Shown in pieces: positions 1,292 to 7,682 of a stretch of DNA of 64,000 nt (position 1 is the stretch's first letter; the number at the start of each line of letters is the position of its first letter). The DNA comes from Mayamaea pseudoterrestris (lineage: Eukaryota), in the NCBI GenBank assembly GCA_027923505.1, contig BROI01000001.1:2480001-2544000 (forward strand). The letters run 5' to 3'. The notes below the pieces were generated by a model that saw only the letters and a list, made by a program, of their open reading frames with translations, was not told the origin of the DNA and did no database searches. Position numbers and translations under genes: made by a program.

Positions 1292-1595
1292 TGCGATTGT
1301 AATGTGTCGGTGCTCTCCGATGAGGCTGCAACATGCAGTTCCTCATTGCTCTCGTCTGCGGGGTCACCAAGAAGGGTGTACTCTGGAGCTTGGGTATGAA
1401 GCCATTTGGCCCGGCAGGCCGAGGTACCTTACAACATACTACCGGAAGTACGGATATATGTTAAGCTACCACATTTATTTAGAATTTTGTTCGTTGTTCT
1501 ATAAGGCGAGAATCGATCGTCCATATGACATCCGTAAACGGTGAACAAAGGTGGCATAGAGTCATCTGGAATTGTAACGAGACGCAAGTATACAG

Positions 1596-3199
1596 CTAAG
1601 CAAAGTAATCCAGGCTTCCCTTCTTCTTGGCCGAAACAACAGTAATGGCTTCGACAAAGTCTTCGTGCATGATTTCTGTCATTTCGCGTCGCAGTGCCAA
1701 CATTCCAGCTTCAACGCAAACGGCTTTAAGTTGTGCACCGTTGAAGTCTTCGCAACCCCGCGATAACTCTTCAAATACAACCTCAGAGCTTACATGCATC
1801 TTGCGCGAGTGAATTCTAAGAATTTTGGTGCGTGCATCTTCGTTGGGATGCGGCAGTTCAATCTTTCGGTCCAATCGTCCAGATCGCAGCAGAGCTGGAT
1901 CCAAAACATCAGGTCGATTCGTCGCGGCAATAACCTTAATCATTTCGTTACTGGAAAAGCCGTCCAATTGACTCAGCAGTTCAAGCATTGTACGCTGGAC
2001 TTCGCGGTCGCCGCTCTGATCGCCTCCAAAGCGCTTTGTACCAATGGCGTCAATCTACAACAGAGAAACTGCATGAGAATTCATCTAGACATGACAAAAG
2101 CAGCGACACTGAGCACCGGTCAACTTACTTCATCGATAAAAATAATGGCTCCTGCGGACGACCCAGCCTTGATCTTGGCTTTGGCCAGCTCAAACGCATC
2201 GCGGATGAGCTTGGCTCCGTCGCCGATAAACATTTGTACTAGCTGCGGGCCAGCAAGCTTCAAAAAGACCGCATTCGTTTGATTCGCACAGGCTCGAGCC
2301 AATAGAGTCTTGCCAGTTCCCGGAGGTCCATGTAGAAGCACACCCTTGGGTGGACGAATGCCAATGGTATCAAACATGTCCTTGTGTGTCATGGGCAATA
2401 CCACGGCTTCAATAAGCTCTTGAATCTGCAAATCGCAGCCACCAATATCCGAATATTCCTCCGTTGGTCGCTCGTCAACTTCCATTGCTTGTACTCTAGA
2501 ATCAAACTCCTCCGGCAGCTTTTCCAGAATGAGATAGGAATCCTTGTTTGTTCCGACCAAGTCACTCGGTTTGAGTTCCTGTGGATCAACGAGGCCAGGA
2601 ATGGGAAGGAAAATGGTCTGCCGAGTACTTGTTCGCACTACAGCTGAACGGGTTTTGCGATTGGCGTCAACGTCCGTAACGTCAATATCTTCCTCTTCAA
2701 GTCCTGTGGATGAGGCGATAGATTTGCAAGGATTAAATCGTTTTATTTGTGGCGAGATCGTGATCGTACAAAAGAGCATGATGGCACACTGAAATTCCAG
2801 CATAACTTAAATCGTCTAACATAACAGCCACTCGCTACTCTCAGAGTCATGCTTACCATCTTCAGCATCTGGCTCAAGTATCTCAACCACATTTGCAACA
2901 AGATACGGCAATTGCTTGTTCAGCTTGACCTTTTCCTGATTCTCTCGAATCCGATCACGCTGACCGCGACTCTCATGCGTAATCCGCTGGACATCCGACT
3001 TCATGACCCGAATATCGCTATTCAATAGATGAATGCGCTGTCGCAGCTCGCTAATGCTCATGTGGCGCGTATCGTCATCGTCAAGCTGCTCCTCGTTTTC
3101 CTTGGTTTCCTCCATGACATCATCGGCCTCCTTTGACTCGCCGGCAGCTGCGCCAGCGTCGCCCCAAATGTCTTCGCCTTCGAGATCGTTGCTACTCAT
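1596..3199 (-). CDS. RPT5: 26S proteasome AAA-ATPase subunit 6A; exons 3199-2857, 2703-2129, 2054-1596
   Basis: [17 protein letters not shown], Walker [27 protein letters not shown], Walker B IIFIDE, C-terminal DYFA HbYX tail. GT-AG introns join the ORFs in frame. Confidence 0.97.
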
Positions 3200-3571
3200 G
3201 GTAAATTATAATCGACGGGCTAATAACTTGAATGGACGAATGCAAGAGTCGGTTGTGAAAGATGCAAGCGAGATGATCGATGCGCAAAGATGCTTGACGG
3301 CACCACCCGCAGTGGCACTCACGATAGTCGTAGCGGCAATCAACCCTGACCATCGTTCCTTTCCGCTCACAATTTCGCCATGATGCAGCGTCGTCGACCG
3401 CTTTGTTGCGTCCAAATGTTTCAGTGATGGGCAGTTTTTTAAACGGTGCATGATGAAGAAGCAATAAAGTCGTAACATTGCTGATTGCACAACAAAGTGA
3501 GTCTTCTGGTGGTTTCCGATTGCCTCCTCTTTCGCACCTCGTCGTCGCCACGCTTGCTTGCTTGCTGTTAA

Positions 3572-3704
3572 ATGATGGATATCTCCTCCAACTATCACGA
3601 CGGTCTTTTGAGCTGTTGCGCAATCGCATGGCCTCGTGTTCCAAAATGGAATGCGAACGTTATATGCAATTGTATCAACGTGATATTATTTAGGATGAAA
3701 CTGA
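3572..3704 (+). ncRNA. box C/D snoRNA, U35/snR73-type guide for LSU rRNA 2'-O-methylcytidine
   Basis: C box ATGATGG 3572-3578; guide TCACGACGGTCT 3595-3606, the exact complement of 28S 63715-63726; D' TTGA 3608-3611; D CTGA 3701-3704; flanking TTGCTT/AAGCAA stem. Confidence 0.8.
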
Positions 3705-3934
3705 AAAAAGAAGCAACATGCACTGTTTCTTGTGTTAATGGAATGCGGTGTTTGTAACAGATGTTGCTGACAACTTTTGACCCTTCTTTTTGGTAGATGA
3801 CATGATCTAAGCGCTACGTTTCGTCAACTTTGAGCATAGCCTACAGTCATCAACAATATAAAGGTACGTGAAAGGATATCGACGGAGCTCGTTTTGTAAC
3901 TTCAACAAGCAAGCGACTCTGGCAGAACCTTCAG

Positions 3935-4030
3935 ATGAAGAGTCATAACTCAATCGAGTATCCTACAATCTGACACCTCTAATGCTAGCTTCCATGCAAA
4001 TGGAATCGATGATCTGAAATGGATATCTGA
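3935..4030 (+). ncRNA. box C/D snoRNA (second intron)
   Basis: C ATGAAGA 3935-3941, D' CTGA 3970-3973, C' CGATGA 4007-4012, D CTGA 4027-4030. Closed by a 21-bp stem (3913-3933 / 4031-4051) whose only non-Watson-Crick pairs are G-U on the + strand. Internal TTCCAT-GCAA-ATGGAA hairpin. Confidence 0.8.
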
Positions 4031-4480
4031 TGAAGGTTCTGCTGGAGTTGCTGCTCGGGTTGATGCATGGTATATCAACTGTGTAACTCATCAATCGCTT
4101 TTTCGTTTCATGCAGGCTGATCATGTATAAACGATTCGGACTATTTTCAGATGGTCGCTGCTTCGGTTTGGCTTTTGGGTCAAAGCTTATTCGGTTGACG
4201 GCCGCTTTGGTTGTGCTTCGGTAAAGCAGCTTTCCTTGAAAATGTGGTCTCCGTCAACTGTCGATGCGAGAGCACGTTGCAGCGACTTATGTATACTACA
4301 TCCTTTACAATACCTACTATTATTATAATGATTGAACGAAAGTACTGGGAGTTAGTTTGATGCTACCTGGCTATGGCAATTCAGCATCAACGCTGTATTA
4401 GACATCGGGATTACAGCGAGGCGTATGGTACAGTTGAATTACCGGGCTTACGATAAACATGCTAGTTTTTAAGATACAGT

Positions 4481-5416
4481 TTATGCATTTCTCCTACGCG
4501 TCAATTGCATCATGGCGAATAGTAGATTACCAATAACCCATCCAAAGGTACTTCCAACAATCATGGGCACAGGCCAGCGTTGCCACTGCCACCCTCGGTC
4601 GTAGAGATTCAGTATTTGCATGACAATGGTCACTGCCAAGGTTGCATGAAACACCAGCGTTGAAGAATCAATAGTGACGAGCGCCGTTTGAAGCCAGTTG
4701 GAACGAAACCAATTTGTTGATGGTACAGCGCACTTGGTGCTGGCAAAGGATGTGCGTACCGAGTCGGGGAACGGAAAAGGTTCAAGCATAAAGGCCAAGG
4801 TCGTAAAGTATATTGCCGCGCATAGAGTATGAATCAAATTGACTGATAAAGATGCCCCTGAAAGTAGCATGATTGCGAAGACGTAGATTGAAAGTGTCAC
4901 CGATTCATAGCATGTGCGCAAGCCGTTTTGAAACAATGCGACCAAGACTGTCAAGACTGTATATACGACAAGGCGCTTGCATTCGTAAGGAATTGCAATA
5001 ATCTGCGTTGGATCGAGCTGTTGGGCGTGCTGTGTTTAGGTGCAAACAGGTTCAGCCGCCTTGCGAAACAGAGCAAGAGTGACGATGAGGAGACATAAGG
5101 GACGGCAACACGAGCGTACCATTCGAACCGAGTCACTTCCAAGAGGCCTTAGAAATCCAAAGTACAGCCAAGCAAGCATTATCGAACAGGAAAACGGTAT
5201 TTGTAAAAGTTGTCTCTTGGTTGGCTTGGTGGAATCTTTTTGATCAGCCATTGCCTTTTCCAAACGTCGCGTCGTTACGTCGATTTGCTGCTGCAAGCCG
5301 CTGATAATGTCGGCCGATGTTTGGTTGCCATTTGATGTATTTGGTCGCTTCATGTGCGAGATGTACCAGTGGTTTGCTTTCCGATGATTCTTTAAACGAG
5401 ACGGCTCGGATGCCAT
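4481..5416 (-). CDS. PIGF: GPI biosynthesis PIG-F/Gpi11 family protein; exons 5416-5120, 5029-4481
   Basis: C-terminal LYDRGWQWQRWPVP resembles the PIG-F LDWDRPWQxWP motif; multiple TM segments. A 90-nt GTACGC...CTAAACACAG intron removes the in-frame TAA. Start codon uncertain. Confidence 0.75.
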
Positions 5417-5475
5417 GGTGAAAAATGAGGTGAGGTCGACGCCAAAAACTTAGAAGTCGTACTGGTACTGGCATG

Positions 5476-5483
5476 TGACGTCA
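5476..5483. promoter_or_regulatory. CRE/bZIP palindrome TGACGTCA in the PIG-F/epsin divergent promoter
   Basis: Exact TGACGTCA in a ~290-bp divergent intergenic region. Confidence 0.4.
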
Positions 5484-5707
5484 TCAGCAAGGTTCTCAGC
5501 TGCGACCTCTGACTTGCATTGCGGCAACCTGAACCGCACGCAAAGGAGATTGGAAAGTCGCCGCATCGTCACCGTCCGCCGCCATTGCGCGACAAGACCC
5601 AACAAACCCATTGTCTCAAGATTCATTTGACCCTTGTCGAATTGCTATTGCTGCAATAAGCGAAAGAGCGCATTAGTTTATATTCTCGACTTTGCGCGTT
5701 TTGATCG

Positions 5708-7682
5708 ATGAATTTCTTGCAGGATCTTTCCATCGACAAGGTCCGCAACCTTGCGGAGGACGCGTAAGTGAATTCGACGGACATTGGCATACCTACGAAA
5801 TGCTTTCATATAGTAAAATTTGATAGAATATTCTCATTCGCATCTCCATTTTCCTCCGCTACATTTCAGTTTTAATCAAGCCAAACCAAAGACGGAAGTG
5901 GAAACCCGCGTCTACGAGGTGCTTTCGCACAAGAATTGGGGCGCCAGCACGAGTTTGTTGAACCAAGTCGCCAAGGACTCCTACGACTATGACAAGTACG
6001 CCGTCGTTTCCGAACTCATGTGGCAGAGCATGGAGAATCAGCGACCGGCGGCGTGGCGGGTCGTTTTCAAGGCGCTGAGTTTGTTGGAGCATTTGATCAA
6101 GAATGGATCGGAGCGCTGCGTGGATGATGCCAGGAACCATGGGCATTCGTTGCGAGCGTTGCAGCAGTTTAATTATTATGAAGGCACCATTGATAGAGGC
6201 CTTGGCGTCCGAGAAAAATCCAAGCAGCTAATCGAAATCTTGTCGGACGATGAGCGAGTACGCGAAGAGAGACAAAAGGCCAAGAAGCTACGAGAAAAGT
6301 TTGGGTCAAAGCTTGGAGGCGTCTCCGGAGGGGCGGGAGCTAGTAGCGGAGGATATGGAGGAAGCTCTGGTTGGGATAGTGGAACCTCGTCTGGCTACGG
6401 CGAGGGCGGCATCGGGTCGGAACGCAAGAATGGAGGAGGGAATCGCTTTGATGCTGATCCGAGGGGACCGTCTGGTGCCTACACGGGTAGGTACGATGAA
6501 GATCGTGGAGCACGGGCGAGCACCGCGGCGGAACCGACGTTTGCCGCCTTGCCTGACGAAAAACGCACAAAGAATAAGAGTAAAAAGGTTGCAGAGCCAG
6601 CTCGTGTCGCAGCTCCGGAGATTGATTTATTTGCCTTTGATGAAGCTGCAGCGCCGGCTCAGGCTCCTGCAGCATCTGTCCCAGCTGATGATTTTAGTGA
6701 CTTTCAAGGCTCATCAGCTTCTGGTATCGATCCATTTGCGGCGCCTGCACCTGTCCCAGTGCAGCAGAATGGCTTTGAAAACTTCTCGACGCAGCAGAGC
6801 AGTAGTGCTGCCCAATTCGACGCGTTTTCGCAACCTTCGCAGCAAAGCAATTCACAGCAACAGCAATTTGACGCCTTTGGAACCTCGGCCACAAGCGGAG
6901 GCATGCAGAACAACTTTAACACCATGGGCGGCGGTGGTATTGGTCAGTCTTCCATGGGCATGCAGTCAACAGCTGCAGTGACGCAGCAGGTGCATTCGAA
7001 CTTTGGTGGCGATGAAGACGATGACTTTGGTGACTTTTCTGCCGCCCAGACAAGCAAGCCTCCATCAGCTGCGGCAAAGAGCAATGATCCTTTTGGAAGC
7101 TTAATTTCGCTAGACGGCTTATCGCTGAATAGCAACAAGAAAAAGACGGAGGATAAGCTCAACGCGCCAGTCATTGCCAATGCCGCAGCGGCCACGTATA
7201 TACAGGAAAAGGAACACATTGAGCAAGCTGTCCAGCAGAGTAAGAAGGGCAATATGGCTAGTTTTGACGGGCTTGTTGACTTGCCAAAGCAAAACAATAT
7301 GGGCGGCTTGTCAATGAACTTTGGAATGAACATGAACTCGGCATCGTTTGGTATGAATCCAAGCGTCATGGGCTCTGGCGGTGGAGGCGATGCGATTGGA
7401 AGCATCTTTGACCCTTCCAATTTGCAACCGCAGCAGTCCCATCAGCAAATGGGTGGCATGCCGCAAGGATTTGGTGGCCAGCAAGCTAACGGCGGCAATA
7501 TGATGGCTGGTAATCCGATGATGGGTCAAATGAATCAGCAACAGCAAATGATGATGGCTCAAATGACACCGCAGCAGCAACAACAAATGATGCAGATGAT
7601 GCAGCAGCGGATGTTACAGCAGCAGCAGCAGTCAGGATTTGGAGGACAAGGCATGGGTAATTCAATGGGCGGTGGCTTCTAA
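5708..7682 (+). CDS. ENTH-domain clathrin adaptor (epsin-related); exons 5708-5763, 5881-7682
   Basis: ENTH signature WRVVFKALSLLEHLIKNGSE...GLGVREKSKQL; DLF/DPF/FGDF motifs; Met/Gln-rich tail. Confidence 0.92.

Follow-up and report, generated by a model that had tools for sequence, protein, structure and literature searches.

A UHG/GAS5-like non-coding snoRNA host gene adjoining RPT5 in the raphid pennate diatom Mayamaea pseudoterrestris

What occupies the + strand between the proteasome gene RPT5, read in the opposite direction, and the next gene downstream in a 64,000-nucleotide window of the Mayamaea pseudoterrestris genome (the whole stretch of DNA analysed here)? The original prediction singled out this region as the largest ORF-less gap in the gene-dense part, a description that, outside the rDNA, holds if frames of at least 100 residues are counted (gap 3686-4483) and fails if the limit is set at 80 or 120 residues. 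We find that the locus is a non-coding snoRNA host gene of the UHG/GAS5 kind in a raphid pennate diatom, with RPT5 adjoining it. The combined explanation that fits best, to which we give a probability of roughly 80%, is a spliced non-coding host with three exons that carries one box C/D snoRNA in each intron, both snoRNAs being guides for 28S rRNA.

According to this explanation, RNA polymerase II would be the likely enzyme transcribing the short + strand gene into a three-exon RNA. Splicing would free the introns, each holding one snoRNA; after debranching, exonucleases would trim them back to the C/D core covered by protein and so yield the mature snoRNAs, the spliced exons probably being a disposable by-product. 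The snoRNA of intron 1 (snoRNA A) would direct 2'-O-methylation of C2865 in 28S rRNA, and the snoRNA of intron 2 (snoRNA B) would methylate G2699, G2697 or both within 28S 2696-2707. The features on which this account draws are collected in Table 1.

Table 1. Features of the host locus and of its two neighbours, in window coordinates
Feature	Position	Strand	Details
RPT5 (26S proteasome regulatory subunit 6A)	1596..3199	-	start codon at 3199; divergent from the host gene
Mini box-C/D-like element in exon 1	3446..3490	+	45 nt; GUGCA/UGCAC stem around AUGAUGA and CUGA
Host exon 1, 3' end	3468..3496	+	X3 contig fits the window to 3500, then exon 2 letters
Intron 1	3497..3796	+	300 nt, GTGAGT...TAG; junction in X3 contig
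snoRNA A, box C/D, U35/snR73 type	about 3566-3712	+	predicted from guide, spacing and flank pairing
snoRNA A outer helix	ending at 3716	+	UUGCUU/AAGCAA; from sequence
snoRNA A boxes	C 3572-3578; D' 3608-3611; D 3701-3704	+	AUGAUGG; UUGA; CUGA; from sequence
snoRNA A guide	3595-3606	+	12 contiguous Watson-Crick pairs to 28S 2862-2873
Exon 2	3797..3863	+	67 nt; stop codons in all three frames (script)
Intron 2	3864..4115	+	252 nt, GTACGT...CAG; junction in X3 contig
Long outer helix enclosing snoRNA B	3902..4063	+	~30 bp
snoRNA B, box C/D, snR48/U60/Afu_264 type	about 3925-4039	+	predicted from 28S pairing, Rfam and conservation
snoRNA B terminal stem	3925-3933/4031-4039	+	9 bp, directly at the boxes
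snoRNA B boxes	C 3935-3941; C'-like 4007-4013; D 4027-4030	+	AUGAAGA (one change); CGAUGAU; CUGA
snoRNA B putative degenerate D' box	3982-3985	+	AUGC, non-canonical
snoRNA B 28S-pairing stretch	3969-3980	+	12 contiguous Watson-Crick pairs to 28S 2696-2707
Exon 3	4116..4395	+	RNA-run contig cover to at least 4395; longest ORF 33 aa
PIG-F-like membrane protein gene, convergent, downstream	4481..5416	-	Pfam PIG-F below threshold

Gene structure and RNA support

The proposed structure, with two GT-AG introns around a short exon stopped in every frame, was confirmed by sequence and script, and the distances from the D boxes of the two snoRNAs to the 3' splice sites downstream, 92 and 85 nt, agree with the claim. 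The introns were also said to be longer than nearly all others in the region; this stands against the two introns of RPT5 (74 and 153 nt), the sole introns compared. The left limit of exon 1 at about 3468 is an estimate from bin depth, and the transcription start falls somewhere within 3200 to ~3468.

Evidence of splicing comes from X3, an RNA-like run of unrecorded library type, none of the runs listed for 3200-4480 being annotated as RNA; blanks in its coverage were not used as expression evidence. X3 behaves like RNA, since its contigs skip both RPT5 introns and its depth is absent over 3144-3417. One X3 contig fits the window to 3500 and continues with 30 letters: the first of them belong to exon 2, and at their end the last 10 nt of exon 2 run straight into the first 5 nt of exon 3, forming a 15-mer absent from the genomic window. 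This contig, from a single run at a depth of about 2 and with 30 of its 123 loose letters read, represents a variant allele with a shorter exon 2 than that of the window, and its junction 3496/3797 carries an ambiguity of 4 nt. A second contig begins two bases ahead of exon 3, at 4114, and extends past 4395. Yet another, over 3531-3723, reflects a precursor or an intron, since it exceeds snoRNA A in length; the stretch 3829-4102, with snoRNA B, is without X3 cover. A spliced host with one snoRNA per intron is thus backed by the GT-AG sites and by both junctions within one RNA-like contig of low depth.

As for coding capacity, the longest ATG-initiated ORF of the spliced sequence has 47 residues and falls before the part with RNA support; the second longest has 33. 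In a second haplotype, seen in the DNA-like runs X1 and X2, 105 unlike letters replace 3398-3494 and 214 unlike letters stand in place of 4127-4356; the same haplotype keeps 3494-3601 and 3966-4127, including the parts of the snoRNAs that these intervals cover. Moreover, blastn against 62 related loci (see below) returned no match to the exons. The view of the exons as non-coding is therefore supported: no spliced ORF exceeds 47 residues, exon 2 is closed in all frames, and the exons are unconserved where the snoRNAs are kept.

Two further elements were considered as possible guides and set aside. The mini C/D-like element of exon 1 yielded no anchored rRNA target above chance; its resemblance to 18S is in the sense and not the antisense orientation, and it is gone from the second haplotype. 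A candidate guide at 3755-3764, with 10 pairs before the CUGA at 3767, is at chance level, lacks a C box and does not qualify as a snoRNA.

The two snoRNAs and their predicted targets

As a class, box C/D snoRNAs are stable small RNAs in complex with fibrillarin, Nop56, Nop58 and Snu13; their C box (consensus RUGAUGA) is close to the 5' end and their D box (CUGA) close to the 3' end. Both boxes are present in snoRNA A (AUGAUGG and CUGA; its C box ends in G, against A in the consensus) and in snoRNA B (AUGAAGA and CUGA), and the terminal helix of each is kept by compensating changes. A guide of at least 10 nt faces a known 2'-O-methyl site in A, and B pairs over the equivalents of Gm2791 and Gm2793. 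Since 11-mers complementary to rRNA are about as frequent in the window as chance predicts (161 found, about 135 expected), the case for the snoRNAs rests on context and not on raw complementarity. From the guides on known methylation sites, the conservation in relatives and the helices that drift in sequence and stay complementary, we judge both predicted snoRNAs to be real. Upstream of the D boxes of A and B, and of the CUGA at 3970 in B, no anchored target for a second guide was found in 18S, 5.8S and the part of 28S that lies in the window (all but its final ~150 nt).

For snoRNA A, the fifth-nucleotide rule at the D' box leads to C2865 (numbering of the window 28S), which on sequence grounds is the counterpart of yeast Cm2959, Arabidopsis Cm2960 and human Cm4536. 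SnoRNA A shares its guide letters and D' spacing with Plasmodium falciparum PFS17, which its authors assign to LSU Cm2959 / snR73 / U35 / AtU35 (PMC2656528). PFS17 and human U35 are intron-encoded like snoRNA A, and PFS17 is much shorter (76 nt, versus about 135-145 nt). The final G of the C box and the long insertion that separates D' from C' distinguish A from SNORD35, snR73, AtU35 and PFS17 alike. The Rfam model plasmodium_snoR20 matches it weakly (18 bits, E 2.2, below the gathering score of 45 bits), and the region of A folded alone is no better than shuffles (z -1.23).

C2865 and G2699 are 166 nt apart in the window 28S. According to PMC8583080, the same spacing is found in yeast (2959-2793), Arabidopsis (2960-2794) and human (4536-4370), and because of this shared distance G2699 and G2697 can be read as the equivalents of Gm2793 and Gm2791. 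The target of snoRNA B, by methylation, is thus most likely G2699, G2697 or both; the fifth-nucleotide rule meets G2699 only if the AUGC at 3982-3985 is the D' box. In pairing with the LSU stretch of Gm2791 and Gm2793, B is like snR48, SNORD60 (U60), Afu_264 and sn2903, but unlike them it has a degenerate D' box (AUGC), and its score stays below gathering. The best Rfam family for B is Afu_264 (22.5 bits, E 0.15, with the gathering score at 40 bits), a predicted guide for two close Gm sites in 26S (PMC2377427), whose model the layout of B fits end to end. Its matches to snoRNA B of the relatives (E 0.0027-0.17) reach at most 34.5 bits, again below 40. The sn2903 model gives 15.2 bits against a gathering score of 50, and snR75 also matches weakly. 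SnoRNAs A and B are accordingly functional equivalents of these families by guide and not Rfam family members by covariance models. The fold of 3895-4070, which takes in the outer helix of B, has an energy of -61.5 kcal/mol (z -5.13), and none of 200 shuffles was as good.

Conservation, neighbours and competing explanations

A metagenome scan by the guide-A pattern yielded 62 loci. The 9-mer core of guide B follows 165-680 nt downstream on the same strand in 28 of them, where chance would place it in less than 1% of 1-kb flanks; these 28 loci were grouped into 17 distinct sequence groups. When 3000-5600 was compared with all 62 loci by blastn, only the snoRNA bodies matched (3568-3695 and 3926-4037). 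The helices flanking them consist of different letters in the relatives, with complementarity kept, and long helices recur around B. In each of two flank tests (18 cognate versus 306 non-cognate pairs, from 18 sequences), cognate flanks paired better, with means of -10.4 versus -4.9 kcal/mol for A (p 1.4e-4) and -20.5 versus -12.3 kcal/mol for B (p 8.5e-5).

The surroundings of the pair are more variable. Judged by eye and from sequence, about 12-13 of the 17 groups have what could be a short exon between the two snoRNAs. In four loci (L011, L021, L031 and L056) a distance of 165-329 nt separates A from B, and an intervening exon is not visible. In L016, a same-strand open frame of 573 residues, assigned to the TB2/DP1/HVA22 family (28.2 bits, cutoff 27.2), ends ~70 nt short of what may be the first 5' splice site; L034 is a similar, weaker case of a coding frame upstream of the pair. 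Given the four loci with no visible exon between A and B and the coding frame of L016, the non-coding design with one snoRNA per intron is not universal in the group.

The divergent neighbour varies as well. Here it is RPT5: its exon 2129-2701 matches PDB RPT5 chains (E 1e-84 to 4.5e-87) and is 100% identical to the NCBI protein 26S proteasome regulatory subunit 6A [Mayamaea pseudoterrestris]. Synteny with RPT5 did not appear in the relatives: tblastn of two RPT5 exons found none among the 62 loci, a result that is not decisive, many contigs being short upstream. A divergent gene other than RPT5 is present at the locus in six relative groups. Judged by such sequence comparison, the partnership with RPT5 is specific to the Mayamaea pseudoterrestris lineage, and the head-to-head geometry of the two genes suggests a possible shared bidirectional promoter. 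Downstream, the PIG-F-like gene (Pfam PIG-F, E 2e-4, 22 bits versus a cutoff of 24.2) has tblastn matches in eight loci; in seven of these the match follows the snoRNA pair downstream and is on the opposite strand, so that gene and pair are syntenic.

How far do these data leave room for other explanations? That box-like words and rRNA complementarity came together by chance in a non-functional spacer is scarcely credible. The box motifs are short and the 11-mer count is close to expectation, but the idea is contradicted by the recurrence of A followed by B in 28 of 62 loci, by the restriction of blastn matches to the snoRNA bodies and by the co-variation of the helices; in addition, the guides land on sites methylated in yeast, plants and human, and splicing is seen. 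We also consider it very improbable that the transcript is a coding or micropeptide mRNA, or the UTR of a neighbouring gene with the snoRNA introns inside it. The frame of L016, its weaker parallel in L034 and the two small ORFs of the window itself speak for such an arrangement. Against it, the + strand sequence upstream is antisense to RPT5, the downstream gene is read from the opposite strand, exon 2 is stopped in all frames, and the exon stretches that contain the small ORFs give way to unlike letters in the second haplotype and are unmatched in relatives.

Release of the snoRNAs mainly without splicing, by an RNase III-type cut in the long helix and exonuclease trimming, with the introns secondary, is unlikely, though less so than the preceding two explanations. 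Such release is known for polycistronic or Rnt1-dependent snoRNAs of plants and yeast, and both the strongly folded helix of about 30 bp around B, with its long counterparts in relatives, and the four loci lacking a visible exon would suit it. However, the spliced contig exists, and a plausible exon separates A and B in most of the relative groups. Furthermore, in vertebrates there is a spacing between D box and 3' splice site that is optimal for splicing-coupled snoRNP assembly; the values observed here, 92 and 85 nt, are near that optimum.

A spliced non-coding host therefore remains our preferred reading for the window. For diatoms at large, we tentatively raise a further possibility, itself rather doubtful: that what is conserved is an ancient linkage of two snoRNAs, a U35/snR73-type followed by an snR48/U60-type one, with interchangeable hosts, the helix of B permitting splicing-independent release. 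The pair would then be housed in a stand-alone non-coding spliced gene in M. pseudoterrestris, might, in L016, occupy introns within the 3' UTR of a coding gene, and might form two-snoRNA units with no exon between them in the four loci mentioned above. The divergent neighbour would have been exchanged too, being RPT5 here and another gene in six other groups. The pair might tolerate such changes of host because the co-varying helix of B offers a release independent of splicing.

Relation to known host genes

Hosts of the UHG type are known in animals and fungi and have apparently not been described in diatoms before. We found no snoRNA catalogue for diatoms in the searchable literature, and the terms 'snoRNA' and 'non-coding' are not in the text of the Mayamaea pseudoterrestris genome paper. 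The present locus extends the UHG design to stramenopiles and introduces no new principle. It illustrates, with partial RNA support, one way in which diatoms can express guides for rRNA modification. Diatom genome annotation, which is ORF-based, would miss a spliced non-coding host, and intergenic gaps can hold such genes; two search patterns, one for each guide, recover the snoRNA pair in 17 other sequence groups.

The vertebrate UHG, GAS5 and SNHG hosts and dUHG of Drosophila were reportedly described by Tycowski in 1996, by Smith and Steitz in 1998 and by Tycowski and Steitz in 2001. Vertebrate UHG genes have a 5'TOP start, and their spliced RNA is polyadenylated yet unstable and NMD-prone. 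Like these animal genes, the diatom host places a single box C/D snoRNA in each intron, has short exons in which no ORF is conserved and which change fast around conserved snoRNAs, and has its D boxes 85-92 nt before the 3' splice site. It differs from them in its size, with two snoRNAs and three exons in less than 1 kb, and in the helix of ~30 bp wrapped around snoRNA B, a feature not known from UHG, GAS5, SNHG or dUHG genes.

The UHG design, regarded in the original prediction as the vertebrate and Drosophila type, is not confined to animals: Neurospora crassa, according to PMC2780460, has UHG-like non-coding hosts. The same source lists CD31, an intronic homologue of snR73/U35, and CD8, a homologue of snR48/U60 with a D' guide. 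The Neurospora hosts resemble the diatom gene in belonging to a microbial eukaryote, in their intronic box C/D snoRNAs and in having short ORFs only. Unlike the diatom pair, CD31 and CD8 are not reported there as neighbours, and CD8 is listed as intergenic. The two organisms belong to different lineages, and the sequence similarity between their snoRNAs is confined to the guides.

Structure and coding potential of the host gene

The original prediction placed two GT-AG introns around a short exon closed in every frame, with the D box of each intronic snoRNA ~85–92 nt before the 3′ splice site. Both introns and the exon are present (see table), and the measured distances are 92 nt for snoRNA A (box C/D, intron 1) and 85 nt for snoRNA B (box C/D, intron 2). 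The divergent neighbor can be firmly identified from its sequence as RPT5. One of its exons matches solved RPT5 chains with E ~1e-84 and shares 100% identity with the protein that NCBI lists for Mayamaea pseudoterrestris as 26S proteasome regulatory subunit 6A; the named matches ranking after it come from other raphid pennate diatoms (91–94%). These matches bear out the diatom origin, which had previously been assumed. The membrane-protein gene on the other side is PIG-F-like by a Pfam match under threshold (E 2e-4). An rDNA unit (58325-64000, +), whose 28S is truncated by the end of the window, lies on the same stretch as single-copy genes. Its presence allowed guide pairing to be tested on the organism's own rRNA.

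Features of the host gene, its two snoRNAs and their surroundings
Feature	Position	Strand	Remark
RPT5	start codon 3199	-	bounds host gene on one side
Intron 1	3497-3796 (300 nt)	+	canonical GT-AG
snoRNA A, C box	3572-3578	+	AUGAUGG
snoRNA A, D′-type box	3608-3611	+	UUGA
snoRNA A, D box	3701-3704	+	CUGA
Exon 2	between the two introns (67 nt)	+	stop codons in 3/3 frames
Intron 2	3864-4115 (252 nt)	+	canonical GT-AG
snoRNA B, C box	3935-3941	+	AUGAAGA; directly flanked by 9-bp helix
snoRNA B, D box	4027-4030	+	CUGA; directly flanked by 9-bp helix
snoRNA B, 9-bp helix	3925-3933 with 4031-4039	+	
PIG-F-like membrane-protein gene	3′ end ~4481	-	convergent, downstream of host gene
18S rRNA	58325-60107	+	rDNA unit within window
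5.8S rRNA	60398-60552	+	rDNA unit within window
28S rRNA	60854 to window end	+	rDNA unit within window

A spliced model joining 3200-3496, 3797-3863 and 4116-4480 contains no ATG-initiated ORF above 47 aa. The 47-aa frame (3240-3383) lies upstream of the RNA-supported part, and the next longest (33 aa) lies in exon 3. On the + strand, the sequence upstream of the host gene runs antisense to RPT5; downstream, the next gene lies on the other strand. The genome of M. pseudoterrestris is described as diploid, with 2.97% heterogeneity (PMC9724779). Two sequencing runs with contigs matching the window, X1 and X2, contain a second haplotype, in which 3398-3494 is replaced by 105 unlike letters and 4127-4356 by 214 unlike letters, while 3494-3601 and 3966-4127 are kept. 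Exon 1 also contains a 45-nt minimal box C/D-like element (3446-3490, +) that combines a GUGCA/UGCAC stem with CUGA and a perfect AUGAUGA; it has no antisense rRNA target, is too short for a normal snoRNA and lies within the stretch that the second haplotype replaces.

Transcription and splicing

None of the runs listed for this region is registered as RNA. We compared 1500-5600 with the contigs of X1, X2 and a third matching run, X3. X1 and X2 cover the region evenly and are DNA-like. X3 contigs lack the two RPT5 introns, the skipped segments having CT..AC ends (GT..AG when read on the minus strand), and depth falls to zero over 3144-3417; this run, whose library type is not on record, thus behaves like RNA. 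One X3 contig matches the window to 3500 and continues for 123 further letters. The 30 of these that were read open with exon 2 sequence (window 3801-3806) and end with the last ten letters of that exon (unique, 3854-3863) followed by the first five of exon 3. The joined 15-mer is absent from the whole genomic window. As 3497-3500 resemble the first four bases of exon 2 (one mismatch), the alignment could run past 3496 to 3500, and the join is consistent with junction 3496/3797. Both expected junctions, 3496/3797 and 3863/4116, are therefore represented, the former through a 4-nt ambiguity, in a single contig of one RNA-like run, with a depth of ~2. This contig derives from a variant allele in which exon 2 is not as long as in the window. 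A second X3 contig starts at 4114 and reaches 4395 and beyond. A third (3531-3723) covers intron 1 around snoRNA A and, since it overshoots the snoRNA at both ends, represents a precursor or the intron.

Guides and their conservation in relatives

Outside the rDNA, the window contains 161 11-mers complementary to rRNA, against ~135 expected. Complementarity alone is thus not above chance, and the snoRNA case rests on context. Guide A (3595-3606) pairs with 28S 2862-2873 over 12 uninterrupted Watson-Crick base pairs, and its residue five nucleotides upstream of the D′ box lies opposite C2865 (window's own 28S numbering). P. falciparum PFS17 has the same guide letters and box spacing; PMC2656528 assigns it to the position corresponding to yeast LSU Cm2959, where its counterparts are snR73 and the U35 snoRNAs of human and Arabidopsis. 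Guide B (3969-3980) likewise pairs without interruption over 12 nt, with 28S 2696-2707. It is followed by a degenerate box, AUGC (3982-3985); if this is taken as the box, the fifth-nucleotide rule points to G2699. The distance from C2865 to G2699, 166 nt, is also that between yeast Cm2959 and Gm2793, Arabidopsis Cm2960 and Gm2794, and human Cm4536 and Gm4370 (PMC8583080). By this identical spacing, G2699 and G2697 correspond to yeast Gm2793 and Gm2791, the sites guided by snR48 (PMC5199042). The second guides of both snoRNAs have no target in the window's rRNA, its 28S being cut off at the window end.

Rfam matches all remain under threshold. For snoRNA A the match is plasmodium_snoR20 (18 bits vs gathering score 45). 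For snoRNA B the best is Afu_264 (22.5 bits, E 0.15), followed by sn2903 and snR75; B copies of relatives match Afu_264 with E 0.0027 to 0.17, still under gathering. Afu-264 is a predicted guide for two nearby 26S Gm sites (PMC2377427). Two motifs were also noted around snoRNA A: AAUGGAAUGCG occurs twice in intron 1 (3644-3654 and 3738-3748, +), and the interval from D′ to C′ carries a CCAAAAUGG-like motif in 16 of 22 loci counted. Separately, 4991-5004 (+), in the spacer that separates two minus-strand ORFs within the PIG-F-like gene, is perfectly complementary over 14 nt to 18S 1532-1545; it has neither a C nor a D box in its vicinity, and ~2 such matches are expected by chance.

Scanning JGI metagenome contigs with a pattern of C box, guide A and D′ box yielded 62 loci. 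The 9-mer core of guide B follows on the same strand in 28 of these loci, at a downstream distance of 165-680 nt (400 nt in the window); by chance it would be expected in far less than 1% of such flanks. These 28 form 17 distinct sequence groups. In blastn, window 3000-5600 matches the 62 loci only at 3568-3695 and 3926-4037, the two snoRNA bodies; host exons and intron flanks have no match in any of them. Cognate flanks of each snoRNA pair better than non-cognate ones taken from different loci, with means of -10.4 vs -4.9 kcal/mol for A (p 1.4e-4) and -20.5 vs -12.3 kcal/mol for B (p 8.5e-5; 18 cognate and 306 non-cognate pairs in each comparison), so the flanking helix is kept while its sequence changes.

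By eye, ~12–13 of the 17 groups have a plausible short exon between A and B, flanked by AG and GT; none is visible in L011, L021, L031 and L056. The PIG-F-like gene has tblastn matches in eight loci, seven of which (L038, L004, L017, L020, L031, L040, L048) share the window's arrangement, with this gene downstream and on the opposite strand. A search for RPT5 in the relatives gave no match (0/62 loci, many on short contigs). Instead, another, conserved gene lies divergently upstream within ~0.6-1.3 kb (L017/L001, L004, L041, L029, L011) or at 3.2 kb (L061). In L017 it is a 384-aa open frame with no Pfam family, and the 64-kb window, with RPT5 in its place, contains no homologue. The head-to-head layout thus recurs, and the RPT5 partnership appears lineage-specific. 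In L016, a 573-aa TB2/DP1/HVA22-family open frame (stored coordinates 4221-5939, minus strand; 28.2 bits vs cutoff 27.2) ends ~70 nt before the putative first 5′ splice site, and the snoRNA introns may lie in the 3′ UTR of this coding gene. Further AUGAUGA words after a possible third exon, downstream of snoRNA B, in L006 and L016 suggest that their host carries more snoRNAs than that of the window.

Proposed release of the snoRNAs and comparison with known hosts

Most likely, the host would be transcribed and spliced, both introns then debranched and trimmed to protein-covered C/D cores, and the mature snoRNAs would guide 28S methylation, A at C2865 and B at G2699 and/or G2697. The D-box distances of 92 and 85 nt are near the spacing reportedly favorable for splicing-coupled snoRNP assembly in vertebrates (Hirose and Steitz 2001). 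The main rival adds endonuclease cleavage around B as a further release route. Such release occurs in yeast and plants, and it is hinted at by a helix of ~30 bp (3902-3934 with 4031-4063, +) that encloses snoRNA B and may be a processing signal. The fold of 3895-4070 has z -5.13, with 0 of 200 shuffles equally stable; the snoRNA A region alone folds no better than shuffles (z -1.23), as is usual for box C/D RNAs. We consider this additional route improbable and retain release by splicing, debranching and trimming. Long helices of unrelated sequence were also seen in the same place around B in L006, L017, L031, L034 and L049.

In the literature searched, we found no description of diatom snoRNA host genes or of a diatom snoRNA catalogue. 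A P. tricornutum small-RNA paper mentions snoRNAs in passing only (PMC4247016), and diatom terms are absent from the SnoBIRD paper (PMC12309372). For Ostreococcus, intronic snoRNAs are reported, and a host named there is a predicted nucleoporin gene (PMC7671301). The window's host gene has the same design as UHG/GAS5-type hosts, as predicted; its attribution to vertebrates and Drosophila was too narrow. The design is not confined to animals, since UHG-like non-coding hosts are described for N. crassa in PMC2780460, where CD8, the snR48/U60 homologue, likewise uses its D′ guide.
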